DNA from: a virus
Taxonomy: Duplodnaviria; Caudoviricetes
Reading direction: 5' to 3' (one strand)
IMG/VR virus record: IMGVR_UViG_3300047447_000196
Location: 1-64,000 of that record
DNA: 64,000 bases
Under the pieces are notes generated by a model. It made no database searches. It saw nothing but the letters and a program-made list of their open reading frames with translations, and had not been told where the DNA came from. Numbering within the stretch: position 1 is the first letter of the stretch; every line of letters starts with the position of its first letter. Made by a program: the position numbers and the translations under genes. This document shows positions 2,249 through 32,472 of the stretch, piece by piece.

Positions 2249-2252
2249 GCGC

Positions 2253-2495
2253 TTACTCCTTGAACGTGTGGGTCGTCTTGCCGAAGGTCGGGTCGGTGGC
2301 GTGGCACTGCTCCATCGGGTCGCTGCCGGTGCCGGACAGGCCGCCGAGGCGGTTGATGTCGTCGAGGCCGATGCCGCGGCCATCCAGTTCGGTCTTGACG
2401 CCGGTCATGCCGGTGCCGGTGCCACGATCGGGGACGGGCTTCCTGTCGCCCATGACGACGCCGGTGCCGTCGGGCTTGTAGTTCGATTCGGACAT
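2253..2495 (-). CDS. Hypothetical protein
   Basis: MSESNYKPDG..., with a KEN-encoding purine-rich RBS (AAGGAG) upstream. Confidence 0.55.
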   Translation of the reverse strand: MSESNYKPDGTGVVMGDRKPVPDRGTGTGMTGVKTELDGRGIGLDDINRLGGLSGTGSDPMEQCHATDPTFGKTTHTFKE

Positions 2496-2520
2496 GCTGT
2501 TCTCCTTGGGGTGAGACGGA

Positions 2521-2772
2521 TTAGCGCTCGTTGCCGCGGGGGCGGTGCGCGAAGCCGGGGCGCTCGGCGAAGATGTCGCCGACATAGTTCTCGCCGTCGT
2601 CGGCGTTCTGCGGCAGCCAGTGCGGGACCGTTTCCGGGTCCGGCTCCTTGCTGAACCCGCGGGCCAGGTCGGCCAGGCTCAGATCGTTGCCGGTGCCCGA
2701 GCCGCCGGTCAGGCTGGCGTTCGAGGATTTGAGCGGGCCGCTTTTATTCAGCTCGCTGTTTTCGATGGTCAT
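2521..2772 (-). CDS. Hypothetical protein downstream of capsid gene
   Basis: 83 aa ORF with GGAGG RBS. Confidence 0.55.
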   Translation of the reverse strand: MTIENSELNKSGPLKSSNASLTGGSGTGNDLSLADLARGFSKEPDPETVPHWLPQNADDGENYVGDIFAERPGFAHRPRGNER

Positions 2773-2803
2773 GGAGACCTCCTGGTTACTGTGATCGTCA
2801 CGT

Positions 2804-2841
2804 AAAAACGCCCGCCCCGCCGTGAGGTAGGGGCAGGCGTT
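2804..2841 (-). terminator. Intrinsic terminator after major capsid gene
   Basis: AACGCCTGCCCC...GGGGCGGGCGTT hairpin followed by T-run on minus strand. Confidence 0.55.
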
Positions 2842-2853
2842 CAGGGACGCTGC

Positions 2854-4304: not shown

Positions 4305-4346
4305 AATATTTCTCCTTAGATTGCAAAAATGATGGATTTGCGCCTG

Positions 4347-5396
4347 TCAGCCCGCGCGCGCCGCCCTCATGGCGGCGATGATCGAGGACGCATCCTCGGG
4401 CGTGGTTTCGGTGGGCGCGGTTTTGGTGTTGATCGACGTCACGTTGTCGATCGTTCGCTTCTGCTCCAGCTTTTGCGCTCGGGAGGACGTGGTCGGGGCA
4501 GGATCTTCGCGGCGGCCCGGTTCCTGTACGGCGCTCCATCCGAACTTGGTAGCGAGTTCCTTGCTGACGGTGTCCAGCGCGGCGAAGAAGTCGGTGCCTT
4601 CTTCTGCCTGCTTGCGCTGGATCTTGGCCAGGGCCAGGGCTTCGATGTCGGGGTCGGCGTACATCTCGGGATAGTCGTGACGGTTCTGCGTCAATACACT
4701 CTCTACGACGAGCTTCTGCTGCACGTTGTGCGTCACCGCCTGGGCGATCTGGTCGACGTCGAGGATGGGCGCAGCTGCTTGAGCCTGCTGCCGTCCAGCC
4801 AACATTTCGTCCAGTTTGGTGAGCGCACTTTCTTCATCACCCTCAAAGAGGGCCTTGAGGAAATCTTTGCGGGCGGCGACGGCGTCGACGTCCGCGGGAT
4901 CGGGTTCGCGGGCCTGCTGGCCCTGCTGTTGCTGCAGCTGTTCCTGGTACTGCAGCATCTGCTGCTCGCGCAGCAGGCGTGCCGCCTCGGCTTCCTGGGC
5001 CTCGCGCAGGAGGCGCGTGGCTTCGGCCAGGCGTTTATCGGCGGCTGAATTCTTCTGGTACTGCCTGACGACCTCGTCGACCGGGACTTCGATCTCCTCG
5101 CCGTCGATCTTGACCTTGACCAGGGCCGGCGCGGCGGCGGATGCCGGGGCCGGTGCGGCGGCCGGGTCGTTCAGCTGGGCGTCCAGCTGGGAGGCAGCGG
5201 GTGCGGGTTCCGGCTCGGGCGCCGGTTCGTCCGGCAGCTGCCAGCCGTTCTGTGCGGCCATTTCGGCCTGGTGGCGCGCTTCGAGGGCTTCGAGGGCCTG
5301 TTCGCGCGCGGTCTTCTGCGGTGCTGCTTCTGCTGCGGTTTCTGCCGGTGCTGCGGCGACTTCATCGTTTTGCACGTCCGATTGGATAGCGCTCAT
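4347..5396 (-). CDS. Capsid scaffolding protein
   Basis: Acidic coiled-coil protein with VKVKIDGEEIEVPVDEVVRQYQK...ADKRLAEA motif, between portal and capsid. Confidence 0.8.
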   Translation of the reverse strand: MSAIQSDVQNDEVAAAPAETAAEAAPQKTAREQALEALEARHQAEMAAQNGWQLPDEPAPEPEPAPAASQLDAQLNDPAAAPAPASAAAPALVKVKIDGEEIEVPVDEVVRQYQKNSAADKRLAEATRLLREAQEAEAARLLREQQMLQYQEQLQQQQGQQAREPDPADVDAVAARKDFLKALFEGDEESALTKLDEMLAGRQQAQAAAPILDVDQIAQAVTHNVQQKLVVESVLTQNRHDYPEMYADPDIEALALAKIQRKQAEEGTDFFAALDTVSKELATKFGWSAVQEPGRREDPAPTTSSRAQKLEQKRTIDNVTSINTKTAPTETTPEDASSIIAAMRAARAG

Positions 5397-5434
5397 TGAT
5401 TACTCCTGGGTGATGCGCCCGCGGGCTGCGGGCG

Positions 5435-5502
5435 AAAAAAAACCCGCTTCGAGGGCGGGTCTGAAACTGGGCGTAAAAAAACCCGCTGCGTGAGCGGGTT
5501 TC
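5435..5502 (-). terminator. Two tandem intrinsic terminators
   Basis: ACCCGC-stem hairpins, each followed by a T-run on minus strand (5435-5460, 5475-5502). Confidence 0.75.
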
Positions 5503-5519
5503 AGGGGGAAGCGGCGGAT

Positions 5520-5849
5520 CTAGTCGGGCCGGGGACCGTGGCGCGCTTCGAGCTGGCGGTTGTGCTCGAGGATCATGTCGCAGTAGCGGCGCAGCGCATC
5601 GACCGCGTACAGATCCGGCAGGCGAATCGCAAACAGGTCGTGCTGGCCCTGCATGACGGCCAGCGTTACTTCCTCGTCGGCGCCAAGGGAGTGCCAGCAG
5701 CGCAGCGCCACCTCGCCGCCGCCGACGCCGAAGCTCTCGCCCGGTGTGAAGATGGCTTCGAGCGCCCGGCTCAGGTCGGGGGAACGAATGCCGAACTCGT
5801 CCGGCCCGTCGTACTGGATCTGGCAGTGTCCGATCGTCAGCTCGTTCAT
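5520..5849 (-). CDS. Hypothetical protein (paralog of 5846-6202)
   Basis: MNELTIGHCQ..., shares VDALRRYC[DE]MIL.HN with its neighbour; ATGA overlap. Confidence 0.7.
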   Translation of the reverse strand: MNELTIGHCQIQYDGPDEFGIRSPDLSRALEAIFTPGESFGVGGGEVALRCWHSLGADEEVTLAVMQGQHDLFAIRLPDLYAVDALRRYCDMILEHNRQLEARHGPRPD

Positions 5850-15529: not shown

Positions 15530-16768
15530 ATGGATATCCAAAAAGAAACGGAACGGGCCGAAGTCCTGCTGCCGGCCCAGCTCGACGACGATGTGCTGCG
15601 CTACGTGATGGAGTGCGCGCACCTGAACAACCCGGACGGCGCGCGCCTGGTGAAGTCGATCCACCTTTTCATGCACGAGGCGCTGCGCACCAGGCCACCC
15701 GAGCCGCAGTACCACGCCACGCTGCGCGGCATGGCCGATTGCATGGACATGGTCTGGCGGGAGCTGATCGAGGCCGGGGTGATCGACCAGAAGGTGGCGC
15801 CGATGTTCGTGGCCGAGGCGGTGCTGGCCCGGCTGGATGGTCTGCGCAACGAAATGCTCGTCGTGCAACGTCGCCTCGCCGGCGAGACCCTGCGCGCCGG
15901 TCTGGCCGAGGCGCGCGCCGCGTCGAAGTCGAAGGAGTGCATCGAGCTGCGCGAGCGCATGGCGGCAAGGCCGGCGATCCCGGCCACGCCGGAGCAGGCC
16001 ATCGCCTTCATCGGCAACCAGTGCGAGGTGCGCGAGGATGCGGTGCCGCTGGACCGGACCCGCTTCCAGCTCACCGTCCACGATCTGCTGTCTGCGTTCC
16101 GCTGGTGGTTCCACGATGACGTGGCTGACGGCGCGATCTACGAGGCGGTGTCGCGCCGTGCCGATCCGGCAGCGCATGATGCGGCCGTCGCCGAGTCCAT
16201 GGCCGTGCTGTCTAATTCCGCCGAATTCGACGGAATTAGAATGCCTACAGGCCGGGACCAAACCGCTGTTCCGGTGGCGACCGGAGCCGTTGAAACCCGC
16301 ATGGATACTGGCTTCCAGCCTCTGCCAGAGGGTGGGCCTAATTCCCCCGAATTCGAGGGAATTAACAAAGCCGTGACTGTCACGGAAAAGGGGCCGTGGC
16401 AGGCCGAGGAAATCGCGCAACGGCTGCCCCCGCCCCGCGCTACGGTCGCTGCGGTGACGGCCGAGCTTCTGGCCGCCGGCAACGCGGTGGTCGAGCACTG
16501 GCACTCGCGCGACTGGAAAAAGCCGCCTACTGCGGATGTCATCGCCCGGCTGACGAGGGCGGTAGGCCGGGTCAAACGTGGCCGTGAGCTGTACACCTGC
16601 GTCGACAAGGGCGGCGAATACGAACTGGTTGGCGAGGCGAAGGGCGCCGGGACGTTGAAGACTTATTCGGGCTTGATCGTCTACCAGGACAGCATGACCG
16701 GGCAGATGTACTGCCGTTCGATGACGGACTTCGACAAGCGCATGCAGCGCATCAAGGAGACGCTGTGA
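15530..16768 (+). CDS. Mosaic hypothetical protein with C-terminal DUF1653-like domain (412 aa)
   Basis: Only the last 412 aa (MDIQKETE...) of the 3227-aa track ORF look coding; ends KGGEYELVGEA...LIVYQD...YCRSMTDFDKRM. Confidence 0.65.
   Translation: MDIQKETERAEVLLPAQLDDDVLRYVMECAHLNNPDGARLVKSIHLFMHEALRTRPPEPQYHATLRGMADCMDMVWRELIEAGVIDQKVAPMFVAEAVLARLDGLRNEMLVVQRRLAGETLRAGLAEARAASKSKECIELRERMAARPAIPATPEQAIAFIGNQCEVREDAVPLDRTRFQLTVHDLLSAFRWWFHDDVADGAIYEAVSRRADPAAHDAAVAESMAVLSNSAEFDGIRMPTGRDQTAVPVATGAVETRMDTGFQPLPEGGPNSPEFEGINKAVTVTEKGPWQAEEIAQRLPPPRATVAAVTAELLAAGNAVVEHWHSRDWKKPPTADVIARLTRAVGRVKRGRELYTCVDKGGEYELVGEAKGAGTLKTYSGLIVYQDSMTGQMYCRSMTDFDKRMQRIKETL
16211..16364. repeat. Two near-perfect palindromes TAATTCC(G/C)CCGAATTCGA(C/G)GGAATTA inside a CDS
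   Basis: 16211-16240 (14/15 pairs) and 16339-16364 (12/13 pairs). Confidence 0.85.
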
Positions 16769-17229
16769 ACGTATTGTTTTTTGACATCGACGGCGTCGTG
16801 AATTCCGAGCGCAGCAGCCTGGGGCTGGGCGGCTACCCGCACAGCTTCGCCGAGACCGACATGCCCAAGTTCGACCACGTCGCCGTGGGCCTGATCCGCA
16901 GGCTGTGCCGCGTGACCAAGACGCAGATCGTGCTGTCGTCCACCTGGCGCATGTACCACACGCCGGGGCAGGTATCCGAGGCGCTGGACCTGCCGGTGAT
17001 CGACAGGACGGCGGACCACGGCAGCTACGACACGCGGGGCAGCGAGATCGCGGCCTGGCTCGCCGAGCATCCCGAGGTCGAGGCCTACGCGATCGTCGAC
17101 GACGTGCCGGTCTGCGACGGGCATCCCGACCTGCAGGCGCGCTTCGTGCAGACCAACCCGATGACCGGCCTGTCTCTCGACGACTATCGCCAGCTGCGCC
17201 ACCTGCTCGCCCCGGAGTGCTACGAATGA
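16765..17229 (+). CDS. HAD-family phosphatase (HAD_SAK-like)
   Basis: VLFFDIDGVVN, IVLSSTWR, RGSEIAAWL, YAIVDD. Confidence 0.8.
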   Translation: MNVLFFDIDGVVNSERSSLGLGGYPHSFAETDMPKFDHVAVGLIRRLCRVTKTQIVLSSTWRMYHTPGQVSEALDLPVIDRTADHGSYDTRGSEIAAWLAEHPEVEAYAIVDDVPVCDGHPDLQARFVQTNPMTGLSLDDYRQLRHLLAPECYE

Positions 17230-20966: not shown

Positions 20967-22579
20967 ACCCCGTCGGCGTAGGTCTCGGGTTCCAGCGCCC
21001 GCTCGTCGATGATGATCGGCGGCACCGGCGACATGTCGTAGATCCGGCTCACCGCGTCGATCAGGTCCTTCTTCGAGCTGAACGGGTAGGTCAGGTATTC
21101 TTCGAGGAAACCTTTGTTGAGGCTGTAGATGTTCCCCTCGTGATCCCTGCGCTGCACCGGCTTGAAGATGCGGAAGCCCTGGCCCTGTTCCCTGATGCGC
21201 TTCTGGTTGGCGGTCTCGCCCGTCACCACGGCGGCCATATAGAAGCGGCGGCTGATGAAGTCGGGCTGCAGCCTCTGGACCCTGTCGTCCTTGGCCTGGG
21301 CACCGTCGCTGGTCCAGTTCAGTTCGAGGATCTCGAAGGCGTCCTTGTCGCGGGTCATCTGCTCCTCGAAATATTCGAGGTCCGCCTGCATCCCGTAACG
21401 CTCATAGCCGAGGTAGACGGCCTGCACGCCCGGCTGGGCCATCCAGTACCGGCGCAGGCCTTTCAGGGCCTCCCAGCGCTCTCTGAGGCCCATCTTGTGG
21501 CGGTAGCCGTCCAGCAGGTACTTGTTGCCGCCGCTGTCGATCCCGACCACGGCCATCGCGGTGTTATCGGACCCCTTCTTCTTGCTGTGCGCCGGGTCGC
21601 ACATGATGTAGACGTTGAGCGTGGCCGGGCGGATGTCCAGGAACGAGAGCCATTCCTTCTTGAACATCGCCTCATTGCCCGCTGCCGGGTTCATCAATTG
21701 CTGACACGCAATCGTGGCCGGCCCCTGCGCGAGCTTCTTGTCGGTCCAGGCCTGCTGGGTCAGGAACACAGGGCGCCCGTCGGGGGTGCCGTCATGCGTG
21801 GCCGGGTACAGGCGCACCTTGAGGATCTTGCGGTCGATGATCTCCTGGTAGGTGTCCATGTAGCTGTAGCGGGTGCCGACGTGCCATGCCCGGATGCGCC
21901 CGTCCTCGCCGCGTGCGCCCAGGTTGTCCGAGAGTTCCCAGGCCGTGGTCGTCTTGTTGACCTGATCCGGGGTGCTGACGGACTCGCGCGTGACCACGTC
22001 ATCGTAGACGCGCAGCAGAAAGTGCGCGCCGGTCGGCTGGCCGTCCACCAGGCCGTGCGCCTCGACCGTGGCCTCCTTCGGGTTGCTCTTGCGCTTGACC
22101 ACGATGCCCTTCTCCTCGCTCCACTTGGGCGACTGGCCGCGTGGATCGCTGTAGAAGATGTCGGGGTAGACGCTTTGCAGGTCGCGGTTCGCTTCCAGCT
22201 CCTGCTTGATCTGCAACAGGAACTTGCGGGCCACCGGCTTGGTGTGCGAGAAGATGCCGACCGTGACTTCCGGGTTCTGGATGATCTCGTGGATGATGCC
22301 CGCGAAGGTGATGACGGTCGATTTGTAGTGCTCGCGCGCCCACAGGTCCAGGCACCCATCGGGTTCGGCCTCGACCTCGCGGCAGCGCGCGTAGATCCAC
22401 GGATGGATCGCATCGAGCCGGTGCAGCAGGCGGGTCAACAGATAGAACCTGTCATGCCTGCCCAGCCATGCCTTGCCCTCGATGCCGTAGCGCGTCTCGA
22501 CCAGCTCCCACAGGTCCGCCACCGCGTCAAACGGGGCGCTGTGCAGCGTGTCGCGGAACTCGTCAGGCAGGGTCAGCAT
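20963..22579 (-). CDS. terL: Terminase large subunit
   Basis: WAREHYKS (Walker A variant), VYDDVV (Walker B), GTRY, CDPA, YERYGMQ, DLIDAVSR. Confidence 0.9.
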   Translation of the reverse strand: MLTLPDEFRDTLHSAPFDAVADLWELVETRYGIEGKAWLGRHDRFYLLTRLLHRLDAIHPWIYARCREVEAEPDGCLDLWAREHYKSTVITFAGIIHEIIQNPEVTVGIFSHTKPVARKFLLQIKQELEANRDLQSVYPDIFYSDPRGQSPKWSEEKGIVVKRKSNPKEATVEAHGLVDGQPTGAHFLLRVYDDVVTRESVSTPDQVNKTTTAWELSDNLGARGEDGRIRAWHVGTRYSYMDTYQEIIDRKILKVRLYPATHDGTPDGRPVFLTQQAWTDKKLAQGPATIACQQLMNPAAGNEAMFKKEWLSFLDIRPATLNVYIMCDPAHSKKKGSDNTAMAVVGIDSGGNKYLLDGYRHKMGLRERWEALKGLRRYWMAQPGVQAVYLGYERYGMQADLEYFEEQMTRDKDAFEILELNWTSDGAQAKDDRVQRLQPDFISRRFYMAAVVTGETANQKRIREQGQGFRIFKPVQRRDHEGNIYSLNKGFLEEYLTYPFSSKKDLIDAVSRIYDMSPVPPIIIDERALEPETYADGV

Positions 22580-23120
22580 CGGGCGCTGGCGCTCCTACGG
22601 GCTGTTGCAGGCGCTTCTTGAAGGCGGCGCGCAGTTCGGCGAAGCCGTCCGACACTTCGACCGTCACGTTGGTGTCGCCCTCGCCCGGATCGTCCAGCTC
22701 GCGGATCTTCCTGATCGTCTCCACCGCGATCTTGTTGGCCTCGACGATGGTCTTGACATCCTTGGGGTGATCGACGCTGTCCACCATCGTGAGCAGCTTG
22801 CCCATGCTCTTGCGCGCCACAGCCAGGCCGGTGTTCATGTCCTGTACGTCCTGGGTGGCCTCATCCAGTTGGATTTGACGAACCGCTTCGTCATTCGTCA
22901 GGTCGTTCGTCACGGCCTCGTCAGTCAGTGACATGCCTGCCATTGCTTCCCGGACAAGTTCCCGCTTAACATCACTGCTCCCCTTGATCCAGCCTTCCCG
23001 CTTGGCATAGCGGCGCAAGGTCGGTTCGGGGATGCCGTGCTTGGTGGCCAGCGCATTGATGCTGTACCCACCTGCCGCGTAGTCGAGCGCCGCAGCACTG
23101 AAATCGTATTGAGTGGTCAT
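22563..23120 (-). CDS. terS: Terminase small subunit
   Basis: N-terminal HTH (YSINALATKHGIPEPTLRRYAKREGW), overlaps the terL start. Confidence 0.75.
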   Translation of the reverse strand: MTTQYDFSAAALDYAAGGYSINALATKHGIPEPTLRRYAKREGWIKGSSDVKRELVREAMAGMSLTDEAVTNDLTNDEAVRQIQLDEATQDVQDMNTGLAVARKSMGKLLTMVDSVDHPKDVKTIVEANKIAVETIRKIRELDDPGEGDTNVTVEVSDGFAELRAAFKKRLQQPVGAPAPDADPA

Positions 23121-23256
23121 GAGCTGTGTCCTTTGTGCATGTGTGACGGCATGCGCAATTGTGCGCCACTATGTAGCATCATGCTATATACTATTTGTAT
23201 GGGCCTGTGCGCCTACCTGTCCTCAAGTTACTCAACCATATCGAAAGGGTCAGATC

Positions 23257-23457
23257 GTGAAACACAAGGTGAAGAAGTTAGATGATGGTGACTTTGAATA
23301 TCGCGGTGTCGAATTCACCCGCGTTGATCGCTTGCGCGGGTATAGCGATCACTACCGCACCTGCCGCAAGGTCAACGGTGTGCCGGTCGTTGCCGCGACC
23401 CGCCGCGAACTGCTGGCTGCGATAGACCGCAACCTCGATGGCGAGGGGGCCTTATGA
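23257..23457 (+). CDS. Hypothetical protein
   Basis: GTG start, first gene of plus-strand block. Confidence 0.5.
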   Translation: MKHKVKKLDDGDFEYRGVEFTRVDRLRGYSDHYRTCRKVNGVPVVAATRRELLAAIDRNLDGEGAL

Positions 23458-23654
23458 AAAAGGCTTCCGTCTTCATTTGTGCGCGCTGCGGCCTCCCGGT
23501 CACAGCATGGCGCGACGGCTGGAAGCACTGCGCGAACAGGCACGGCGCATCGTGCGGGAAGCCTCCACACGTCATCCGGCGTGATGACCCGCGTGATGAC
23601 TCCACCGAGGCGGCGCTTGCCGCTGCCCTAGGCCGGACCAACAAGCAACCCTAA
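23454..23654 (+). CDS. Small CxxC protein
   Basis: CARCG...WKHC. Confidence 0.5.
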   Translation: MKKASVFICARCGLPVTAWRDGWKHCANRHGASCGKPPHVIRRDDPRDDSTEAALAAALGRTNKQP

Positions 23655-23693
23655 GCGCCGCCCCAGCGGGCTTTGTATGGAAAGGAGCTACCG

Positions 23694-24194
23694 ATGAGCA
23701 AGACCAACGTAGTCGCGTTCCCCGAGGCGCAGCCGCGCCAGGACACCCGCCGGCAGCGCGAGGATGCGACCATCCGCCGCGCCCTGTGCATCCTGTCGAA
23801 CCGCATGCGCCAGCCCGGCCCGGCGATCAACAGCCCTGCCACGGCGCGCAGCTATGTGCGCCTGTACGCGGGTGAGCTGGAACATGAAGTCTTCTTGGTG
23901 CTGTTCCTCGACGCGAAGCACTGCCTGATCGCGCGTGAGGAGATGTTCCGGGGCACCCTGGTCCAGACCAGCGTCTACCCGCGCGAGGTCGTCAAGGCGG
24001 CGCTGGCCCATAACGCGGCGGCGGTCGTGCTGGCCCATAACCATCCATCGGGCAGGCCTGAGCCAAGCGAGGCCGACAAGTTGCTCACCCGCGCGCTGTC
24101 GCAGGCCCTGGCCCTGATCGACGTGCGCGTGCTGGACCACATCATCGTCACCGCTTCCGACTCGTATTCTTTTGCCGACCACGGCCTCATCTGA
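23694..24194 (+). CDS. radC: RadC/JAB-domain protein
   Basis: EVFLVLFLD...FRGTL...[24 protein letters not shown]...PSEAD...VLDHIIV. Confidence 0.92.
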
Positions 24195-24206
24195 AAGGAG
24201 ATCGTC

Positions 24207-25118
24207 ATGCTACAGAAACCGCTTGTCGCCGCCCTACGCGACATCATCAGCAGTTCCGACGCCAACGACGGCGATTCGCTCGCCGAAGCGATCCAGCAGG
24301 CCCGCAAGCTGGTCGAGAACCCGCCAGCCTACGACACCGATCAGGCAATACTCGACAACTTCATCAGCGCCCTGGCCGATCTCGGCTTTGGTGACGACGA
24401 CGCGCCGGTCAACGGCGGCGATTGCGTGGACGCGATCTGCGAGTATTGGGACCGGCTGGCACCCCTGGCCTCGGAGTGGCCGCTGCCGCCCGAGCTGGCC
24501 CAGGTGCGCACCGGGCTGACCGTGGGCACCCGCGTGCTCTCCATCGAGGGCGAGACCTCGGACACCGACCACGGCGAGCGCCACACCGGCCCCAACGCGA
24601 TTGGCACCATCACCGGGATCGACGACACCGTCGAGCATGGGATCTGCTTGGCGTTCGAGCCTTCCGGCGTGTCGGTGCGGCTGTCCTGCGCCGAGCTGGC
24701 GGACGACCTGAAATACGAGATCGACCCGGAGACCTACTACCTGAGCCGCGAGGACGTTGTCGAAGTGGTCGAGCGCATGCTGGGCCACGAGGGGAATCAC
24801 GAGCTGGCCGCGCGCGTGGTGGCGAACATGATCGAACAGGGGCAGGTCGAGCACAGCGAACGCGGGTACATGATCGAGCGCGACACCAACGTGTTCGAGA
24901 TCGCTGCGGACCTCAAGGACGGCCCCTACCCTGCGCATCTGGCCCGCGCCGACCATCTGCTCAGCGCCCACGAGCTGCGCGTGAAGTACGGCACCCGCAA
25001 CGGTGGCGGCGAGCATCCGCGCTACCTGCGCAAGCACTGGCGCAACCATGTCGCAATCGAATCCACGATCCTGGGCTACTGGCCGTGGGTCGAGGAACAG
25101 CTTGCACAAGAGGACTGA
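24207..25118 (+). CDS. Mosaic hypothetical protein
   Basis: 303 aa, AAGGAG RBS. Confidence 0.7.
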   Translation: MLQKPLVAALRDIISSSDANDGDSLAEAIQQARKLVENPPAYDTDQAILDNFISALADLGFGDDDAPVNGGDCVDAICEYWDRLAPLASEWPLPPELAQVRTGLTVGTRVLSIEGETSDTDHGERHTGPNAIGTITGIDDTVEHGICLAFEPSGVSVRLSCAELADDLKYEIDPETYYLSREDVVEVVERMLGHEGNHELAARVVANMIEQGQVEHSERGYMIERDTNVFEIAADLKDGPYPAHLARADHLLSAHELRVKYGTRNGGGEHPRYLRKHWRNHVAIESTILGYWPWVEEQLAQED

Positions 25119-25190
25119 GCCAGTCTGAGCGCCTTGTACGCAGCGCGCTCAGGCGGGGGCCGTCCCCGATTACCTGCAGGAGAGCCGAAC
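25119..25190 (+). repeat. Structured leader repeat copy 1
   Basis: GCCAGT + hairpin CTGAGCGC/GCGCTCAG + hairpin CGGGG/CCCCG + AGGAG RBS. Confidence 0.75.
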
Positions 25191-25637
25191 ATGCCCAAGA
25201 AAACCTACCGCGTGGTCCACAACGGGGTCGAGCACACCCGCAAGACCGACCGGACCTACACCCATGTGGTGCTGGTGCGCCGCGACTATCAGACCGAGCT
25301 GGCCGACACCGTCAAGGAAGCCCGCGAACGCGCCAGGAGGGAGCACGGCTATGCCGTCGAGCGCGCCAACCAGCCGCTGACCGGGCGTAGCTGGATGACC
25401 GCCGAGGATCTCGCCGAGGACGCGCGCATCGCGGGCCTGCCACTCGAACAGTACGAGGCCGAGGTGATCGAGAAAGCCTGCGCCTACGTCGAGACCCGGC
25501 GCGCGAAAGGCGTGTTCGACCAGCCCGGCCCGCTCACATGGTGCGGCAGGCCGGATCTGGCCGCGAAGGAAGAAGCCAACGCGCGCAAGTCCGGGTATTG
25601 GGCCGAGGTGGTCGTCGTCGAGGTGCCGCAACCCTGA
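25191..25637 (+). CDS. Hypothetical protein
   Basis: MPKKTYRVVHNG..., RBS. Confidence 0.7.
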   Translation: MPKKTYRVVHNGVEHTRKTDRTYTHVVLVRRDYQTELADTVKEARERARREHGYAVERANQPLTGRSWMTAEDLAEDARIAGLPLEQYEAEVIEKACAYVETRRAKGVFDQPGPLTWCGRPDLAAKEEANARKSGYWAEVVVVEVPQP

Positions 25638-25641
25638 CCAT

Positions 25642-25706
25642 GCCAGTCTCAGCGTCTCCGCAAGGGGGCGCTCAGGCGGGAATGGTCCCGACTACAGGAG
25701 GATGCC
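25642..25706 (+). repeat. Structured leader repeat copy 2
   Basis: GCCAGTCTCAGCGTCTCC-GCAA-GGGGGCGCTCAG-GCGGGA-ATGG-TCCCG...AGGAGG. Confidence 0.75.
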
Positions 25707-26174
25707 ATGACAACAACACCGCAAGATCCGCTGGCCGAGCTGCTGCGCGTGGTGAAGCAGTACGACGACGAGGAGATCAACCAGCCCGAAAGCTGCCCGA
25801 CCGGCACGGACTACAACAACCTGTTCTCGCTGGTCACGAGCTACATCGAGCGCGTGAACGCGCCGCTGCCCTCGACCGCGCCGAAGCAGGAGCCGCTTGC
25901 GCGGACCGTCTACGAGTGCCCGGACTGCGACTGGACCGGCACGATGGACCAGCTGAACCGCCTGAGCGAGATAGAGAACATCGACGAGCGTGTCGAACCC
26001 GGCGAGCTGGTCCCGGCTGGCTGCTGCCCTAACTGCGAGAGGCTGCTGCCAGTCGAGGATTGCAACGTTCCCCACCACACCCTGTACGAAGTCGGCCTGA
26101 TCATGCGCCAGCGTGGCTGGACCGTGACCGCACCCGCAGATTGCCCATCCCTTGATACCGTGAAAGGAGCCTGA
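25707..26174 (+). CDS. Hypothetical protein with CxxC motifs
   Basis: YECPDCDW...ERVEPGELVPAGCCPNC. Confidence 0.7.
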   Translation: MTTTPQDPLAELLRVVKQYDDEEINQPESCPTGTDYNNLFSLVTSYIERVNAPLPSTAPKQEPLARTVYECPDCDWTGTMDQLNRLSEIENIDERVEPGELVPAGCCPNCERLLPVEDCNVPHHTLYEVGLIMRQRGWTVTAPADCPSLDTVKGA

Positions 26175-26176
26175 CC

Positions 26177-26326
26177 ATGAAACTCGTCGTGACCGCAAAA
26201 ATCTACATCGAGGCCGAGGACGACACCGAGGCCGAAGCCGTAGTCCAGGCTGCGCTTGACAATATGGTGGGTGGCGACATCGACCTGACCGAAGTGATCG
26301 CCGTCGAAGTGGAGAGCCAATCATGA
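26177..26326 (+). CDS. Small acidic hypothetical protein
   Basis: Hand-translated MKLVVTAKIYIEAEDDTEAEAVV... Confidence 0.5.
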   Translation: MKLVVTAKIYIEAEDDTEAEAVVQAALDNMVGGDIDLTEVIAVEVESQS

Positions 26327-26386
26327 TGCTCGCTTCGGGGCAGATCGGCCTGTGCGATAGCTGCCAAGACCTGAAAGGAGGCTGAC

Positions 26387-26629
26387 ATGAACCAGCAAGC
26401 CCTGCCGCCCGACCCGGACGGCCAGAACGACGAACGCGCCGAATGGGCCGCCGAGTCGATCCGCACCTTCGCGCGCGTGACCTGCATGGACACCGCAAAC
26501 GAGGACGACGACACGATCCTGGGCGACCTGCTGTGCGACCTGATGCACTGGTGCGACCGCGAGGGAATCGACTTCGACGCCGTGCTGGGGGCCGCACGCG
26601 AGAACTACGGCGCGGAAACCGCCGACTGA
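26387..26629 (+). CDS. Hypothetical protein
   Basis: ILGDLLCDLMHWCDREGIDF; GGAGG RBS. Confidence 0.7.
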   Translation: MNQQALPPDPDGQNDERAEWAAESIRTFARVTCMDTANEDDDTILGDLLCDLMHWCDREGIDFDAVLGAARENYGAETAD

Positions 26630-26633
26630 CAGC

Positions 26634-26702
26634 GCCAGTGCCAGCGCCTGCGATGCGGGCGCTGGTGCGGGGATTGTCCCGGCAACCGCAAGGAGAACCA
26701 GC
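26634..26702 (+). repeat. Structured leader repeat copy 3
   Basis: GCCAGTGCCAGCGCCTGC-GAT-GCGGGCGCTGGT-GCGGGG-ATTG-TCCCG...AAGGAG. Confidence 0.75.
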
Positions 26703-27125
26703 ATGGATCTGAAACTGACCGCAATCACGGCGGCGTTCGTGATGAATGGCCTGCACCGCGCCGACCTCGATTACATCATGCAGGCGTACACCGGCGACGG
26801 TGGCCAGCTCGAACTGGTCGAGGGCGTCCTGGAATGGGTTCCGGCCATTCTGGCGCTGCGCGCTGCCGCCGACAGCATCGGCGTGGACTACCCCGGCGTG
26901 TTCGAGTATGAAGTCAGCTGCGAGTTCGGCCAGTGGCTCGGTGGCAGCATCATCGACGACGGCGACCTGCCCGACCGTGGGCACGCGATGGAGATCCTGA
27001 TCGACCTGGTCGAGTCCTTCTTCCGCGTGAAGGACGATCCCGTCACCGCCCGCCGCCTGCGCGCCGTGATCGACGCGGCTGCGGACAAGCTCATGGCCCC
27101 GCAAGCCGCCAACGACGGAGCCTGA
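26703..27125 (+). CDS. Hypothetical protein
   Basis: 140 aa, RBS. Confidence 0.7.
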   Translation: MDLKLTAITAAFVMNGLHRADLDYIMQAYTGDGGQLELVEGVLEWVPAILALRAAADSIGVDYPGVFEYEVSCEFGQWLGGSIIDDGDLPDRGHAMEILIDLVESFFRVKDDPVTARRLRAVIDAAADKLMAPQAANDGA

Positions 27126-27128
27126 GCC

Positions 27129-27446
27129 ATGCGCCGCCACCCCGTACAGGTTCGTCACCCGGTGACGAAGCGTGACGAACAGTTCGTCAACCCGCGCTGG
27201 TGGACCCCGAGCGGGGACGAGCGCCGCTACATGGCCGAGCGTGACCTGCTGCGCGCACCGGCCCGGCAGGAGCGGCCCATGTGGCCGTTCGTGCTGCTGG
27301 CCGTCAGCCTGGCGCTGGTCCTCGCCATCGACGCCGCGCCGCAACTGCGCGGTATCCTCGCTGACATCCCCTGGGCCAAGCTGTTCAACTATCAGCCCGT
27401 CTCGCCGATTGATCCCGGCGACCGCAACGGCCTGCTGCACAAATGA
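27129..27446 (+). CDS. Putative single-pass membrane protein
   Basis: Hydrophobic stretch WPFVLLAVSLALVLAI. Confidence 0.55.
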   Translation: MRRHPVQVRHPVTKRDEQFVNPRWWTPSGDERRYMAERDLLRAPARQERPMWPFVLLAVSLALVLAIDAAPQLRGILADIPWAKLFNYQPVSPIDPGDRNGLLHK

Positions 27447-27456
27447 AGGAGCGGAA

Positions 27457-27825
27457 ATGAAACGACCGAGAAACTACACCCCGACCAGCATCAGCCCGCA
27501 CGCGGTGGGTTCGACCCGTATCTGCCATGCCTGCGAGGCCACGCTGGCCCAGGCGCAGATGACCGAGATCCACCCGGTGCCGGGCCTGACCATGTACCGC
27601 TGCCCGGCCTGCGTCGAGCTGCTTGCGCGCGTGCTGGCCTACGCCAAGTCGCGCTGGTGCTGGGACGACGCCGCCATGCTGGAAGAACTGTTCGAGCGCC
27701 ACTGGGTGCGCGGCGAGACGGTGGACAGCTTCGTTGACGGCTGGGCCAAAGACTACGACCTGACCGACCCGCACGACGTCGGCCTGCAACCCGAGGAGAC
27801 CCCGATGAAAGGAACCAAGCAATGA
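27457..27825 (+). CDS. Hypothetical protein with CxxC pair
   Basis: CHACE...YRCPAC; RBS. Confidence 0.6.
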   Translation: MKRPRNYTPTSISPHAVGSTRICHACEATLAQAQMTEIHPVPGLTMYRCPACVELLARVLAYAKSRWCWDDAAMLEELFERHWVRGETVDSFVDGWAKDYDLTDPHDVGLQPEETPMKGTKQ

Positions 27826-28013
27826 GCGGCAGAGCATCCGCCGAAGTCACCAGGGCCGTCGCCATGCTGCGCGAGAGCGGCGGCACGATGACCGCCTACG
27901 CGGCCGCGAAAGCGGTCGGCATCGCCCTGTCAACCATCTACCGCTCGCCCCTGTACAAGGCGTACCGGACCGAGCAGGACCAGTCCACCCACAAGCCAAA
28001 GGAGGAACCATGA
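27822..28013 (+). CDS. Small HTH protein
   Basis: TAYAAAKAVGIALSTIYR. Confidence 0.6.
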   Translation: MSGRASAEVTRAVAMLRESGGTMTAYAAAKAVGIALSTIYRSPLYKAYRTEQDQSTHKPKEEP

Positions 28014-28486
28014 AAAAGCGAAACCCGGAAGTCTGGCACCGTCTAACCAGTACGCACTCCAGCATGGACGACATGATCGCCCGCTACGGCTGGGCCGTGC
28101 AGGGCGTGTTCGGCAGCGATACCAGCCCGACGTTCAGCTACACGGTCGGGCTGGCCGCGAAGGGCCTGCCCGAGATCGTGGTGTTCGGCCTGCCGGCGCA
28201 GGTTGCGCACCAGTTCCTGAACGACCTGGGCCGGCGCTTCACCAGCACCGGCGTGCCGCCGCTGGACACCGACCTGACCGATATCGCCGAGGACTACCCG
28301 GCCCGGCTGGTGCCGGTGCCCCGCGCCGAGGCCGACAAGTACATGTTCGCCACCAAGCACCGCTACCCGGCCTACACGGCGGTGCAGCTCGTTTGGGTGG
28401 ACACGAACAGCCTGTTTCCCTGGGAGTCGGGGTTCGATCCCGACCTCGCCCTGAAACAGCCGATCCTGCGGGACCGGCTTCACTGA
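28010..28486 (+). CDS. DUF4262-like protein
   Basis: GWAVQGV...FSYTVGL...GLPEIVVFGLP...VQLVWVD...FPWE. Confidence 0.75.
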   Translation: MKKRNPEVWHRLTSTHSSMDDMIARYGWAVQGVFGSDTSPTFSYTVGLAAKGLPEIVVFGLPAQVAHQFLNDLGRRFTSTGVPPLDTDLTDIAEDYPARLVPVPRAEADKYMFATKHRYPAYTAVQLVWVDTNSLFPWESGFDPDLALKQPILRDRLH

Positions 28487-28498
28487 AAGGAGCAAGCC

Positions 28499-28849
28499 AT
28501 GAACGACTCGATCACGCGGCTCGACTACTTCGCCGCCCATGCGCCGACGGCGATTCCCGACTGGTTCAAGCCCGAAGAACCGGAGTACAACGGCCCGGCC
28601 TACCCCACCCTTCCCGCCGGCATCCCGGAGGAGGACCGCAAGATGATCGCAAGCTGGGAGAGGGACCCCTGCTTCGACCTCGACGGCGAATACGCATGGT
28701 TCCAGCAGGACGTTGAAGCCTACCGGGCGGCGATGAGGGATCACAAGGAGCGGATCGCGGTGGAGCGCTATCTGCGGTGGCCGTGGGCCTACGCGAAAAG
28801 CATGCTGCTCTGGTGCGACGTCTACACCGTCCAGAAGGAGCCGTCATGA
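28499..28849 (+). CDS. Hypothetical protein
   Basis: TRLDYFAAHAP...WPWAYAKSML. Confidence 0.65.
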   Translation: MNDSITRLDYFAAHAPTAIPDWFKPEEPEYNGPAYPTLPAGIPEEDRKMIASWERDPCFDLDGEYAWFQQDVEAYRAAMRDHKERIAVERYLRWPWAYAKSMLLWCDVYTVQKEPS

Positions 28850-29061
28850 GCCAATCCCTCGTCACCATCACGGCCACGATGGAGGACCCGGTGGCGTGGG
28901 AGCTGGCGCAGTTCTGCAAGCGCAGCACCTTCGACATCTTCTACGACCTGACCGAAGCCCACCTGAGCCACGACGAGCGAACCGCCCTCGCCTACCGCAT
29001 GATTCGCGGGATCGAGCTGGTCCAGCGCGCCCTGGCCGAGCAGGGCTATTCACCACGCTAA
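28846..29061 (+). CDS. Hypothetical protein
   Basis: AWELAQFCKR...VQRALAEQGYSPR. Confidence 0.6.
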   Translation: MSQSLVTITATMEDPVAWELAQFCKRSTFDIFYDLTEAHLSHDERTALAYRMIRGIELVQRALAEQGYSPR

Positions 29062-29073
29062 CAGGAGAACAAC

Positions 29074-29634
29074 ATGACTTCAATTCTGACCATCAAGGGT
29101 TCGACCAGCACGCAGCAGATCGAGGACGCGATCCCCTACACCGACATGCGCCGCCACGCCATCGAGCGCCGCGACGACGCCGCCGCAGTGATCGCCGAGC
29201 AGGGCGACCAGGACGTGCTGGAACTGCACCAGATCGACGGCGTCGATGTGCTGTACTCGCCGACCTTCGGCTACGCCTACGTCAACGCGCAGTCGGGCGG
29301 CATCGGCGACAGCATGGTGATCGACAACGGCGAAGCCGCGTCAGCCGAACATGCCGCCCTGGTCTGGCAAACCCGGAACGCCCCGGAAGGCGCCATCTTT
29401 GAATTCACATGGCGCAACAAGTTCCTCTGCACCGACGTCGAGAGCATTGGAGGGTTCCGCGACAAGCTGGCCGAGGCCGTCGCCACACTTGACCGCTGGA
29501 TGGCCGCTGGCGTAACCCTTGACGAGTTCAGTGGCATCGAGGACGACTACGCCACCTTCCAGACCACGAACAAGGAGTTCGCGCTGGCAGAAGGCTTTCA
29601 TCTGGCCCAACCGGATGAGGAGGACGACGACTGA
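29074..29634 (+). CDS. Hypothetical acidic protein
   Basis: 186 aa, AGGAG RBS. Confidence 0.65.
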   Translation: MTSILTIKGSTSTQQIEDAIPYTDMRRHAIERRDDAAAVIAEQGDQDVLELHQIDGVDVLYSPTFGYAYVNAQSGGIGDSMVIDNGEAASAEHAALVWQTRNAPEGAIFEFTWRNKFLCTDVESIGGFRDKLAEAVATLDRWMAAGVTLDEFSGIEDDYATFQTTNKEFALAEGFHLAQPDEEDDD

Positions 29635-29652
29635 ACCGCCCCGCTCCGTGTG

Positions 29653-29676
29653 AAGCCGCCTGCGGGCGGCTTTTTT
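29653..29676 (+). terminator. Intrinsic terminator ending the plus-strand block
   Basis: GCCGCC-TGCG-GGCGGC-TTTTTT. Confidence 0.75.
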
Positions 29677-29998
29677 ACGTCCGCAGCCGGCCAACGCAGG
29701 GCATGTCCCACTGCGCGCGCAGGCCCTCGCCGGCATCGGCGACGATCCGGGCCACATAGCGCGCCCCTTCCACCAGGGCGAGCGTGAACGGCAGCGTGGC
29801 GCGGTAGACGCCGTTCGAGTCGGCCAGGTACGGCATGGCGAGGGGCCAGTCGGTCCCGGCCACAGGCAGGCCGGCGGCATCGTACAGCGCGACCGATATA
29901 TTCGCATCGGTCACGTACTCGCCGCTGGTCTCGTTCTTCAGGCCCGTCACATCGACGATGCTGTTGTTGCCTAGATAAAGGATGTGGATCGTGCTCAT
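29675..29998 (-). CDS. Putative virion accessory (beta-rich) protein
   Basis: 107 aa, coupled to the fibre gene; VALYDAAG...NGVYRATLP. Confidence 0.6.
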   Translation of the reverse strand: MSTIHILYLGNNSIVDVTGLKNETSGEYVTDANISVALYDAAGLPVAGTDWPLAMPYLADSNGVYRATLPFTLALVEGARYVARIVADAGEGLRAQWDMPCVGRLRT

Positions 29999-32472
29999 CA
30001 GTCGGGCCTCAAGTCAGCGCGCCCGGACAGGACGGCGCGCACGCGGGTCGGCGCGTCGAGCGCAGTATGGAGTTCGGTCGTACCGGCCAGCACCGGGTGC
30101 AGGCGCTTCGCCCCCAGCGTGAGCGAGCCGGGCTTCGGCACGTAGTGTTCCAGCACGCCGCGCGCGCTTTGCCGGTCCTGGGCGGTCTGGACGGCCACGT
30201 CCACGCCGACCACCAGCAGGTTGCCGTCGCCGATGTGCTGGACCTGCCCGAGCTGGATCTGGCTGTCCGCTGCCACGCCCGCCTGCAGGGCGCTGGTCTG
30301 CCCCTGCATGGTGGAGGCCGGCGCATCCGACGACAGGCCGAGCACGCCACCTGTGACCTGCGCCTGCCCGCTCTCGACCGTGTTGACGGCCTCGGCGCGC
30401 GCCTGGGCGCGCACGCGCTGGCGGTGGCCGGTGAAGGCGCTGGCTTCGATGGAGACCGCGCATTCCGCGGCGGCGCCCTGGCCCTGCCCGGTCGCCACGA
30501 CGGTCGGGCTGTCCACCCCGGCCACGGCAGTGACTTGCTGGCCCTGCAGGGTCATCACCTCGGCGACGTAGGCGCTGGCAATGGCCGCGCTGGTGCGCTG
30601 GGCGCTGGCGGTGCCGGCGCTGGCGTCGAGGCTCAGGCCGAGCTGGCCGATGGCCGACTGTGCCTGGGCGCTCGTGGCGCTGGCGTCGAGGCTGACTTCG
30701 GCGGCAACTGCTGCCTGCTGGGCCTGCGAGGATGCCGCGCTGGCGGCAGCGGAGACGCCGGCCTCGGCAGTGCTGGTCTGGCCCTGGCTGGTGGCGGTCT
30801 GGCCCGGCTGGAACACGTTGGCCTGCGCGCTGCTGCTCTGGCCCTGCGCGGTGGCGGCGTTGGCGACCAGTCGGGCGCCGGCGGTGGCGGCTGCGTGCTG
30901 GCCTTGCGCGCTCGTGATCGCGGAACCGGCCCCGACCGATGCGGCGGCGCTGCTTTCCTGCGCCTGCCGGGTGCGGCCGGCCAGGCCGGTCTGGTCGGTG
31001 AGCGATGCCACGCCCATCACGCGCCGCCCGTACCCGTCGCCGGTGTAGGAGACCGGGGTCGATGCCAGGACCGCGTTGTTGATCCGGTAGCCGTCGCAGC
31101 CGTAGCCGCCCTCGGCCTGCGTGACCGTGAACGCCGGGCTGATGGACGAGATGTAGTCGCCCCAGTCCGTCGTCGCCGCCATCGCCATGAAGCCTGCGCC
31201 GCTGGTGGCGATCGCCGGGGTGGCGATGGTGTAGCTTTCGGCGGTGTTGATCTTCGTTGCCGAGGCGTCGATCTGGGCAAGGCTCGGCGACTGGACGTAG
31301 TAGACGACCTGGTAGCGCGGGCCGAGGGTGACGCCGAATTCGACCGTGATGACGTTGGCTGTTGCCGCCGGCACGTTCAGCGCGGCGTACCAGCTGACCG
31401 ACGCGCCGTGGCCGGCCACGTCCGCCACGCTGGTGATGAGCTGGTAGGTGTTGCCGGCGGTGTCCGTCACCGACTGTGGCGTGTACCACATGCGGTTGTA
31501 GACGCCGACCAGGATCTGGGTGCCGTCCGCCACGTCGCGCGCCGGCATCACCGACTGCGTGTAGGTGTAGTCGTCGTCTTCCTGGAATACCCGATCCAGC
31601 AGCACCCACGGCGTGACCGCGCTGGCCTGCGCGCTGCTGCCCTGCGCCTGGCTGGTGCTGGCGCTGGTGGCCGAGCTGACGCTGGCGCTGGCCGCGCCGT
31701 GCTGGCCCTGGCTGGTGGCGACGCTGGCGCTGACGCCAGTCGAGGCTGCGGCGCTGGCGGTCTGGCCTTGGCGGGTGGTGGCGACGACATCGCCGACACT
31801 GGTTGCGGCGGCGCTGGCGCTGCTGCTCTGCCCCTGGCTGGTGGTGACAGTTGCCGTCACGACGTTACTGCTGGAGAACGCCTTGACCTGCCCCACCGCC
31901 GACCAGCTCTCGTTGGCGCGGGTGTACTTCGTGGTCCAGGTCGAGCCGTCGTCCGAATACTGGAGCTGGAAGTCCTTCGGCGATTCACCCGGTTGCCAGC
32001 AGGTCAGCGCGAATTCGACGACATCCTTGGCGTTGCCCGCGCCGAAGTCGTAGCCGATCCACTGCGGCAACGCAAAGGTGCCCTGGTTGATGTACCAGGT
32101 GGTGCTGGTCGTGTCGTCGAACGCCTTCGCCGCCTCGAAGCCGCCGGTCTGGTTCGAGTAGATTGCCGTGCCGCCGACGCACTGGTCGGCCCCGCCGACA
32201 CTCGCGCGGAACTCAATCTCGGACGTGTCCAGGTGGGGCGTGCCGGTGGCCGCCGTGATGTAGACGCGCCAGTAGCGGTGCGGGGTCACACCGGGGCTGG
32301 CGCTGCTCTGCGCCTGGCTGGTGGCGACAGTGGCGCTGATGCCGGTCGCGCCGACGGCCGCGCTGGACTGGGCCTGGGAGGTGGTTCCGGTCGGACTGCC
32401 CGAGGTCGATGCTGTAAGGCCTGGCTGCGCCCCGATAGGTGATTCTGAAAGGGCGCTATGACCTAACGGCAC
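29998..32472 (-). CDS. Putative fibre/decoration protein with discoidin(F5/8C)-like domain and T(S/T)Q(A/G)Q repeats
   Basis: HRYWRVYIT...AAKAFDD...WIGYDFG...PKDFQLQYSDDGSTWT; ~20-aa Ser/Ala/Gln repeats. Confidence 0.7.
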   Translation of the reverse strand: MPLGHSALSESPIGAQPGLTASTSGSPTGTTSQAQSSAAVGATGISATVATSQAQSSASPGVTPHRYWRVYITAATGTPHLDTSEIEFRASVGGADQCVGGTAIYSNQTGGFEAAKAFDDTTSTTWYINQGTFALPQWIGYDFGAGNAKDVVEFALTCWQPGESPKDFQLQYSDDGSTWTTKYTRANESWSAVGQVKAFSSSNVVTATVTTSQGQSSSASAAATSVGDVVATTRQGQTASAAASTGVSASVATSQGQHGAASASVSSATSASTSQAQGSSAQASAVTPWVLLDRVFQEDDDYTYTQSVMPARDVADGTQILVGVYNRMWYTPQSVTDTAGNTYQLITSVADVAGHGASVSWYAALNVPAATANVITVEFGVTLGPRYQVVYYVQSPSLAQIDASATKINTAESYTIATPAIATSGAGFMAMAATTDWGDYISSISPAFTVTQAEGGYGCDGYRINNAVLASTPVSYTGDGYGRRVMGVASLTDQTGLAGRTRQAQESSAAASVGAGSAITSAQGQHAAATAGARLVANAATAQGQSSSAQANVFQPGQTATSQGQTSTAEAGVSAAASAASSQAQQAAVAAEVSLDASATSAQAQSAIGQLGLSLDASAGTASAQRTSAAIASAYVAEVMTLQGQQVTAVAGVDSPTVVATGQGQGAAAECAVSIEASAFTGHRQRVRAQARAEAVNTVESGQAQVTGGVLGLSSDAPASTMQGQTSALQAGVAADSQIQLGQVQHIGDGNLLVVGVDVAVQTAQDRQSARGVLEHYVPKPGSLTLGAKRLHPVLAGTTELHTALDAPTRVRAVLSGRADLRPD

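Follow-up and report, generated by a model that had tools for sequence, protein, structure and literature searches.

A covarying, putatively cis-acting RNA hairpin repeated along a phage accessory operon

Three copies of an intercistronic element

The stretch of DNA analysed here (the window; 64 kb) is part of a 74-kb viral record of IMG/VR (IMGVR_UViG_3300047447_000196) with 66% G+C that represents a genome of 74% completeness. Between the genes of one operon in this window lie three copies of an element of about 60 nt, each reaching from the stop codon of the upstream gene nearly to the ribosome-binding site of the next one, which comparative evidence supports well as a real and previously undescribed RNA motif family of phage mRNA. 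The operon (23673..29634, about 23.2-29.6 kb; + strand) is composed of small accessory genes and runs rightward between the leftward terminase and tail operons. It comprises a RadC/JAB gene (23673-24194), a 303-aa gene (24207-25118), genes of 148, 155, 49, 80, 140 and 105 aa and a DUF4262 gene (28010-28486), all on the + strand. Most of the encoded proteins are without a known family, RadC and DUF4262 being the exceptions; sequence searches of the PDB with four proteins flanking the elements gave no match, and a genome search for relatives of the 155-aa protein found none.

The pattern GCCAGT-N20-40-GCGGG-N3-8-CCCG occurs exactly three times in the window, at 25119, 25642 and 26634 and always on the + strand, compared to a shuffle expectation of 0.15 (three occurrences were reached in 0 of 100 shuffles). 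With a covariance model run over the whole 74-kb genome, these copies score 60 to 77 bits, the next best hit scores 16.6 bits, and no further copy was found. The copies begin 0-4 nt past TGA stop codons at 25116-18, 25635-37 and 26627-29 and are each followed by an AGGAG-type Shine-Dalgarno sequence and an ATG. Behind the first copy, the linker (25169..25193, +) carries AGGAG at 25178-82 and leads to the ATG at 25191 of the 148-aa gene; behind the second copy (25691..25709, +), AGGAGG at 25696-25701 precedes the ATG at 25707 of the Cys-rich 155-aa gene; and behind the third copy (26682..26705, +), a C/A-rich linker, GCAACC, is followed by AAGGAG at 26690-95 and the ATG at 26703 of the 140-aa gene. 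An earlier reading of the sequence without database searches (hereafter the sequence-only reading) had described precisely these three copies, each after a stop codon and in front of a ribosome-binding site, and we find both observations borne out. The invariance that it had ascribed to GCCAGT holds within this genome only, as the hexamer is N-CCAG-Y in relatives. Its designation of the genes as early anti-host genes is conjectural, no function being assigned to flanking proteins other than RadC and DUF4262.

Other gene junctions of the operon, which lack the element, measure just 2-12 nt with one exception of 60 nt, located at 26327-26386 (+) between the 49-aa and 80-aa genes. Stop-to-start gaps at element junctions are 66-92 nt long.

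The long hairpin and its competing fold

Relatives of this genome were gathered by protein-guided and pattern searches of IMG/VR, yielding about 20 related contigs, and the 128 matches of a covariance model (R1) were condensed into an alignment of 47 distinct rows (A3). Because R1 was built with a 12-bp stem as its sole pairing and thus knew this stem alone, A3 is unbiased towards the outer helix described below. The sequence-only reading had proposed two adjacent hairpins per copy, with this long stem followed by a shorter hairpin, CGGGR-loop-YCCCG (hairpin 2). Single-sequence minimum free energy (MFE) folds instead give a single long hairpin: the 5-6 nt that precede the hexamer are paired with what had been taken for the loop of hairpin 2 and with the first bases of its 3' arm. 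This hairpin is made up of an outer helix of 5 bp, a conserved core and the 12-bp stem (P2) on top, that is, 5 + 2 + 2 + 12 pairs that together with 3 mismatch layers form a stack of about 24 layers.

In the first copy (M1, 25112..25168, +; 60.1 bits), the outer helix is formed by GGAC 25112-25115, right next to the stop codon, and GTCC 25162-65, the core by GCCAGT 25119-24 and GCGGG 25153-57, and P2 by 25125-36 and 25141-52, while the alternative hairpin 2 spans 25154-25168. The second copy (M2, 25636..25690, +; 72.6 bits; MFE -35.1, z -2.4) pairs GACCAT 25636-41 with ATGGTC 25682-87 in its outer helix, has its core at GCCAGT 25642-47 and GCGGG 25676-80, and shows P2 at 25648-59 and 25664-75 with a GCAA loop, with hairpin 2 at 25677-25690. 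For the third copy (M3, 26628..26681, +; 76.6 bits; MFE -40.7, z -2.6), the respective parts are GACAG 26628-32 and TTGTC 26674-78, GCCAGT 26634-39 and GCGGG 26667-71, 26640-51 and 26655-66, and 26668-26681.

P2 is 94% paired across A3 and changes on both sides in 9 of its 12 pairs. Its sequence differs even among the copies of one genome with pairing kept, and its loops may be as short as 3 nt or carry insertions exceeding 20 nt. The earlier description of a long stem of variable sequence but preserved pairing is therefore matched by the covariation and needs correction only for one C-C mismatch in the stem of the second copy. This mismatch, at the third P2 pair (A3 columns 21-70), recurs in 10 of 46 distinct copies, M2 included, and may be a tolerated or a functional irregularity next to the core.

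For the outer helix (A3 columns 7-11 with 80-84), 87.8% of cells are paired versus 70.8% after shuffling and 20-43% when the strands are slid against each other. Compensatory double changes are seen in all 5 of its pairs, as at columns 10-81 with A-U 21, U-A 6, C-G 4, G-C 2 and U·G 3 times, and 34 distinct combinations of the outer helix exist; the covariation score was reached in 0 of 500 shuffles, and RNAalifold independently gives the same helix. The core sets CCAGU opposite GCGGG and comprises the pairs C14-G77 and C15-G76, an invariant A16•G75 mismatch, G17-C74 and U18·G73, the last being a wobble in 42 of 45 rows and C-G in the other 3. Taken as a whole, the 22-pair structure is 90.6% paired, with 15 compensatory pairs. 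For 43 of 46 copies, it has the same energy as the unconstrained MFE fold, and the two-hairpin fold is less stable by 5.9 kcal/mol on average. Covariation, RNAalifold and predicted free energy thus concur in supporting one long hairpin well as the best fold of the element.

What the long hairpin leaves unexplained is the conservation of the terminal CCG, since these bases have no partner there. In hairpin 2, the CGGG and CCCG arms are invariant, the fifth pair is A-U in 21, G·U in 17 and C-G in 4 cases, and both arms are lengthened jointly (CGGGG...CCCCG) in 8 rows. For 42 of 45 copies, the 17-nt segment folded alone is predicted to form a hairpin of -5.4 to -10 kcal/mol whose closing pair involves the second nucleotide, and in the remaining 3 it folds in a shifted register. 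It seems probable from these predictions that hairpin 2 forms as well, as a competing fold that excludes the long hairpin because some bases are common to both; an H-type pseudoknot joining the two helices was ruled out on geometry, as there is no linker between the strands. We therefore revise the predicted architecture from two hairpins to one long, bistable hairpin: as the main fold the earlier two-hairpin arrangement does not stand, yet it persists as a minor alternative in which hairpin 2 is a competitor rather than a neighbor.

Several observations place the element at the level of sense-strand mRNA. G·U pairs outnumber A·C combinations by 136 to 21 in the alignment, and besides the wobble at columns 18-73 a second one is conserved at columns 28-63 (41 of 45 rows). 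The orientation of the element is that of its genes in all copies. The stop codon of the preceding gene falls into A3 columns 2-10 in all 45 copies and so either lies in the 5' strand of the outer helix or comes shortly before it, and in each of these copies the Shine-Dalgarno sequence and start codon lie 4-20 nt and 16-32 nt, respectively, past CCCG behind a C/A-rich, G-poor linker. Furthermore, the element is 85-100% identical between genomes compared to 62-88% for the flanking 200 nt, which suggests that it is under selection. The excess of G·U over A·C, the location of every copy between a stop codon and a Shine-Dalgarno sequence and a conservation exceeding that of the flanking genes jointly point to an element of the sense-strand mRNA. 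The claim of a cis-acting RNA made by the sequence-only reading is accordingly well supported by covariation, strand-specific G·U pairs, fixed placement and the lack of an Rfam match (see below), and the comparison of sequences argues well for a new family of structured, cis-acting elements in polycistronic phage mRNA.

The 67 nt of the M2 region (25630-25696) show 100% identity among five phage contigs (the one studied here, L005, L006, L007 and L010), although the 155-aa proteins encoded downstream are just 59-70% identical, which points to an element that is very strongly constrained or has recently been exchanged. Stop-codon read-through to form a fusion protein was considered, since the first two copies are in frame with the next gene, and discarded in view of frames distributed 19/10/16 over 45 copies.

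A stable, GC-rich hairpin (-30 to -40 kcal/mol) directly after an open reading frame (ORF) could also be a transcription terminator, attenuator or pause site that grades transcription along the operon. We regard this as highly improbable: no copy is followed by a U-tract, C/A-rich linkers being found instead, none was called by a terminator scan, and such a role would explain neither the conserved core and the pairing at the stop codon nor the presence of 3-6 copies within 3-4 kb of one operon.

The position of the stop codon in all 45 copies and the conservation signals in both exclusive folds would be compatible with a two-state switch that senses ribosomes. A ribosome terminating on the upstream gene would melt the outer helix and the core, and the 3' strand would then refold into hairpin 2, making downstream initiation or the fate of the mRNA dependent on upstream translation, in an operon whose other junctions are tightly coupled apart from the 60-nt one. 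However, the Shine-Dalgarno sequence and the start codon are unpaired in both folds, leaving no obvious difference in output, and the stop codon may lie in the helix merely because the element abuts the ORF. A switch of this kind is thus quite unlikely.

Occurrence in relatives and gene exchange at the element

A search for further homologs with the covariance model was successful, as R1 detects 1-6 copies per related contig, always on a single strand and clustered within about 3-4 kb. The most distant carriers are a pair of contigs with 62% G+C (G008 and G009) and up to 6 copies; G009, with 6 copies, has only the single-stranded DNA-binding protein (SSB; 45% identity) and the helicase (29%) in common with the genome studied here, and we take the element to be portable between otherwise unrelated phages for this reason. 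Up to 6 copies are also seen in the loci L036 (IMGVR_UViG_3300020418_000038, 2100-5600) and L017 of a distant phage with 62% G+C, where they surround small ORFs and the genes of an AAA_5 ATPase (371 aa) and a DUF7192 protein (269 aa), and where the tip of the 12-bp stem is extended by a long insertion in two copies.

Outside this group, we found no convincing copy. An Rfam scan of the window at gathering score gave no match, in agreement with the earlier statement that the element is unannotated, and relaxing the threshold to E ≤ 10 for 25050-26750 added just two matches at chance level (E 4.5 and 6.9). For 23000-29700, blastn retrieved nothing from GenBank phage records and only radC from the plasmids of PLSDB. 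A pattern scan of 596 Gb of prokaryote genomes gave at least 120 matches, and we consider those listed as chance because none of them joins a paired stem with the context of a stop codon and a Shine-Dalgarno sequence. Among 150 sampled Burkholderiales genomes, the covariance model found nothing besides its only match in a bacterial genome, a metagenome-assembled genome of Acidovorax (L218, 711-780, 37.9 bits). This match is probably spurious, as it lies inside an antisense ORF and lacks the stop/Shine-Dalgarno layout. In JGI metagenome contigs, the scan matched two contigs, one of them already known. With no convincing copy in Rfam, GenBank phages, PLSDB or prokaryote genomes, the element appears confined to a rare group of uncultured phages.

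The genome that carries the three copies encodes an SU10-type portal, a large terminase, a major capsid protein and tail proteins as well as ParA/ParB, a serine resolvase, SSB, an exonuclease and a helicase, a gene set that fits a tailed phage maintained as a plasmid (phage-plasmid). Single-stranded DNA promoters like Frpo, one of the possibilities raised by the sequence-only reading, were rejected because -35 and -10 boxes are missing and a tailed phage with terminase and portal is concerned; portal, terminase, capsid and tail genes point to double-stranded DNA entry rather than Frpo-type single-stranded entry, with no search for a relaxase made. A sigma-70 scan of 22500-30500 found no promoter-like site, and the stem sequence varies between copies. 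Sigma-54 or extracytoplasmic function (ECF) promoters, boxA/nut, HK022 put and parS were likewise discarded, since their boxes would fall into covarying stem positions or one copy per operon would suffice. An AT-rich divergent region at 23120-23260, between a terminase small-subunit-like helix-turn-helix (HTH) gene and the accessory operon, is probably the promoter of the latter, although the sigma-70 scan gave no site there.

Gene order in relatives changes exactly at element junctions, as the sequence-only reading had suggested should be examined. One and the same downstream family, accompanied by the 3' half of the element, can follow upstream genes of different families, and one upstream family can likewise precede different downstream ones; the 303-aa family is followed by six different families across relatives, and family order varies by contig. 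Going upstream, sequence similarity is lost at the 5' edge of the element, with 7-24% identity beyond it, 72-90% in the element and 74-76% in the downstream gene. These varied pairings and the break at the 5' edge are what would be expected from a recombination joint at the DNA level, be it a cassette boundary or a common linker, through which phages would trade accessory genes, with the hairpin being either incidental or a single-stranded substrate like attC. Integron attC sites are indeed similar, since they, too, are imperfect hairpins that follow small ORFs on the 3' side and at which gene content is shuffled. However, attC sites have RYYYAAC/GTTRRRY core sites and an IntI-type recombinase and we find neither here: the base of the hairpin reads GAC.../...GUC and its core CCAGU/GCGGG, GTTRRRY (and with it the R''/R' core sites) is present in no alignment row, and the 74-kb genome lacks an integron-type tyrosine recombinase (PF00589) to the extent of its 74% completeness. 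A Y1 (HUH) transposase (PF01797) is absent, too, and hairpins of repetitive extragenic palindrome (REP)/RAYT or IS200-IS605 type were discarded for this reason and because no convincing copy was seen in the 150 Burkholderiales genomes or among the at least 120 pattern matches listed. Moreover, strand bias, conserved G·U wobbles and the ratio of G·U to A·C fit RNA, covariation within one genome means selection for pairing and not homology alone, and genes also come and go at element-free junctions. A dedicated site of cassette recombination is therefore not supported, and a primary role as recombination joint is very unlikely. In the absence of a recombinase, the shuffling would be homologous exchange at a conserved repeat, and we read it as an expected by-product of the RNA element rather than its purpose.

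Intercistronic processing as a possible function

From the structure, covariation, strand, placement and phylogenetic spread of the element, which are directly supported, we infer cleavage, the enzyme responsible and a stabilizing effect on the mRNA. By analogy with phage T7, the element may thus be an RNase III-type site of intercistronic processing and mRNA stability, a tentative reading that is nonetheless the one we prefer; RNase processing had also been among the proposals of the sequence-only reading and remains a prediction. The imperfect duplex of roughly two helical turns would be the substrate of a double-strand-specific endoribonuclease, most likely host RNase III, and a cut at the imperfect core would part the cistrons. 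With the 3'-side cut near the G of GCGGG at the boundary of P2 and core, the 12-bp stem would stay on the upstream mRNA as a protective 3' hairpin, and the freed downstream mRNA would refold its first 15 nt into the CGGGR-loop-YCCCG hairpin. Hairpin 2 would then be a 5'-terminal stem-loop with a single unpaired nucleotide, located 4-20 nt before a strong Shine-Dalgarno sequence. Stem-loops at the 5' terminus slow 5'-end-dependent decay. The conservation of two mutually exclusive folds would be accounted for, since this model makes use of each, P2 upstream and hairpin 2 downstream.

An ideal RNase III substrate has 22 bp, mismatches at the target site lead to single-strand cuts that leave stabilizing 3' hairpins, and the early precursor RNA of T7 carries five RNase III signals (PMC3867540). 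Like T7 sites, all 45 copies of the element lie between cistrons of the same strand, and their about 24 layers compare to an imperfect helix of around 20-22 bp with mismatches or a loop at the target (PMC3867540). Similar to R0.3, R0.5, R1, R1.1 and R1.3 of T7, several related copies are found in one polycistronic phage operon, each of them folding irregularly over about two helical turns, starting at or beside the stop codon of the preceding gene and stopping some 10-20 nt short of the following Shine-Dalgarno sequence, with stop-to-start gaps in a similar range (62-80 nt in T7). We folded the T7 gaps 0.4/0.5, 0.7/1 and 1.2/1.3 and obtained an irregular hairpin in each, of which those of 0.4/0.5 and 1.2/1.3 have sequence in common with each other; the 0.4/0.5 hairpin runs from the stop codon to a point about 10-20 nt ahead of the Shine-Dalgarno sequence that comes next. 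Differences are evident as well, since T7 sites conserve the upper stem, whereas here a mismatch-containing core in the middle of the helix is conserved together with a second, exclusive fold; in addition, cleavage is inferred for our element, and its host is a high-GC bacterium, unlike that of T7.

Several points weigh against RNase III-type processing. The invariant CCAG/GCGGG core fits a sequence-specific protein or an activity intrinsic to the RNA at least as well, and its conservation across divergent phages is awkward for bacterial RNase III, which needs little specific sequence. The core is also weakly paired here, whereas T7 sites have an open internal loop, and the element is without sequence similarity to T7 sites. 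No host motif of this kind was found in the 150 sampled Burkholderiales genomes, which makes a general processing signal of the host less likely but does not weigh against a substrate specific to phages. No RNase III gene was found in this phage, and as G009 and this genome also have few proteins in common, the factor acting on the element is probably not encoded by the phage and would be either a host enzyme or an activity of the RNA itself.

An invariant core between covarying helices is typical of a site recognized by a protein, and the element could be the operator of a trans-acting RNA-binding protein of phage or host that reads CCAGU/GCGGG with its purine-purine mismatches, whose binding would repress or activate downstream translation or alter mRNA stability. 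Precedent comes from the HTH proteins Aca1 and Aca2, which act on the 5' untranslated regions (UTRs) of acr operons: the target of Aca2, which represses translation, is a pair of conserved 5'-UTR hairpins, and that of Aca1 is a single stem-loop (PMC13551039). These motifs resemble our element in being conserved mRNA hairpins close to a ribosome-binding site in accessory or counter-defense operons of phages (PMC13551039). However, they occur once, in the 5' UTR of the operon, and are bound by a co-encoded HTH protein, whereas here 3-6 intercistronic copies are present with no clear cognate regulator. A candidate regulator is a 63-aa ORF of the accessory operon (27822-28013, +) with homologs in most close relatives, though its match to HTH_7 (E 0.0035) is below the cut-off. 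As G009 has just SSB and the helicase in common with this genome and no common phage regulator is visible, and as a Shine-Dalgarno sequence outside both folds makes simple occlusion not evident, we consider an operator rather unlikely.

The same small invariant core, together with covarying helices, competing folds, the phage context and portability between unrelated phages, would also suit an RNA that cleaves itself without protein and cuts the transcript between cistrons. Such an RNA would have to be of a new class because no known ribozyme family matched in the Rfam scans. Yet only about 13 nt are conserved, and these lie in a nearly continuous helix with no junction, while a pseudoknot is sterically implausible for want of a linker and no specific catalytic architecture is indicated, all of which makes self-cleavage a very remote prospect. 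In a broader version, no dedicated protein would be needed and either a new self-cleaving RNA or a ribosome-operated switch would make the element a portable punctuation mark that gives insulated expression to accessory genes plugged in by unrelated phages, which we likewise judge improbable.

Among repeated elements of other phages, the extended start-associated sequences (ESAS) of Cluster K mycobacteriophages are 17-bp consensus inverted repeats that are subcluster-specific and tied to a 13-bp start-associated sequence (SAS) (PMC3203893). They share with our element that they are repeated intergenic inverted repeats with a variable spacer, found in one orientation upstream of start codons at a subset of non-structural genes, and that they travel with particular gene families (PMC3203893). 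In contrast to the fixed consensus of ESAS arms, the arms covary freely here and only a core of 5+5 nt is fixed. Hosts and phages are unrelated to those studied here, and compared with the published description of ESAS, homology is unlikely because the arms of our element follow no fixed consensus.

Elsewhere in the window, a 154-aa protein (16765-17229, +) matches the HAD domain found in RNA repair proteins of the "Swiss Army Knife" type (PF18143, E 8e-28). It may take part in RNA repair, and the accessory operon of the same phage seems to rely on its RNA being processed.

Hardly any structured RNAs within the accessory operons of phages have been catalogued, and the one described here has unusually clean comparative support, with 47 distinct rows, 15 of 22 pairs compensatory and two conserved competing folds. 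Interest in it would be much higher if the conserved core proved to be protein-independent. Synthetic intercistronic insulators such as RNase III or Csy4 sites and RiboJ serve the context-independent expression of genes in operons, and the element would be their natural counterpart if it is a site of both processing and stabilization. It sits exactly where phages exchange gene cassettes and would, in that case, show how phage-plasmids keep shuffled accessory genes expressed.

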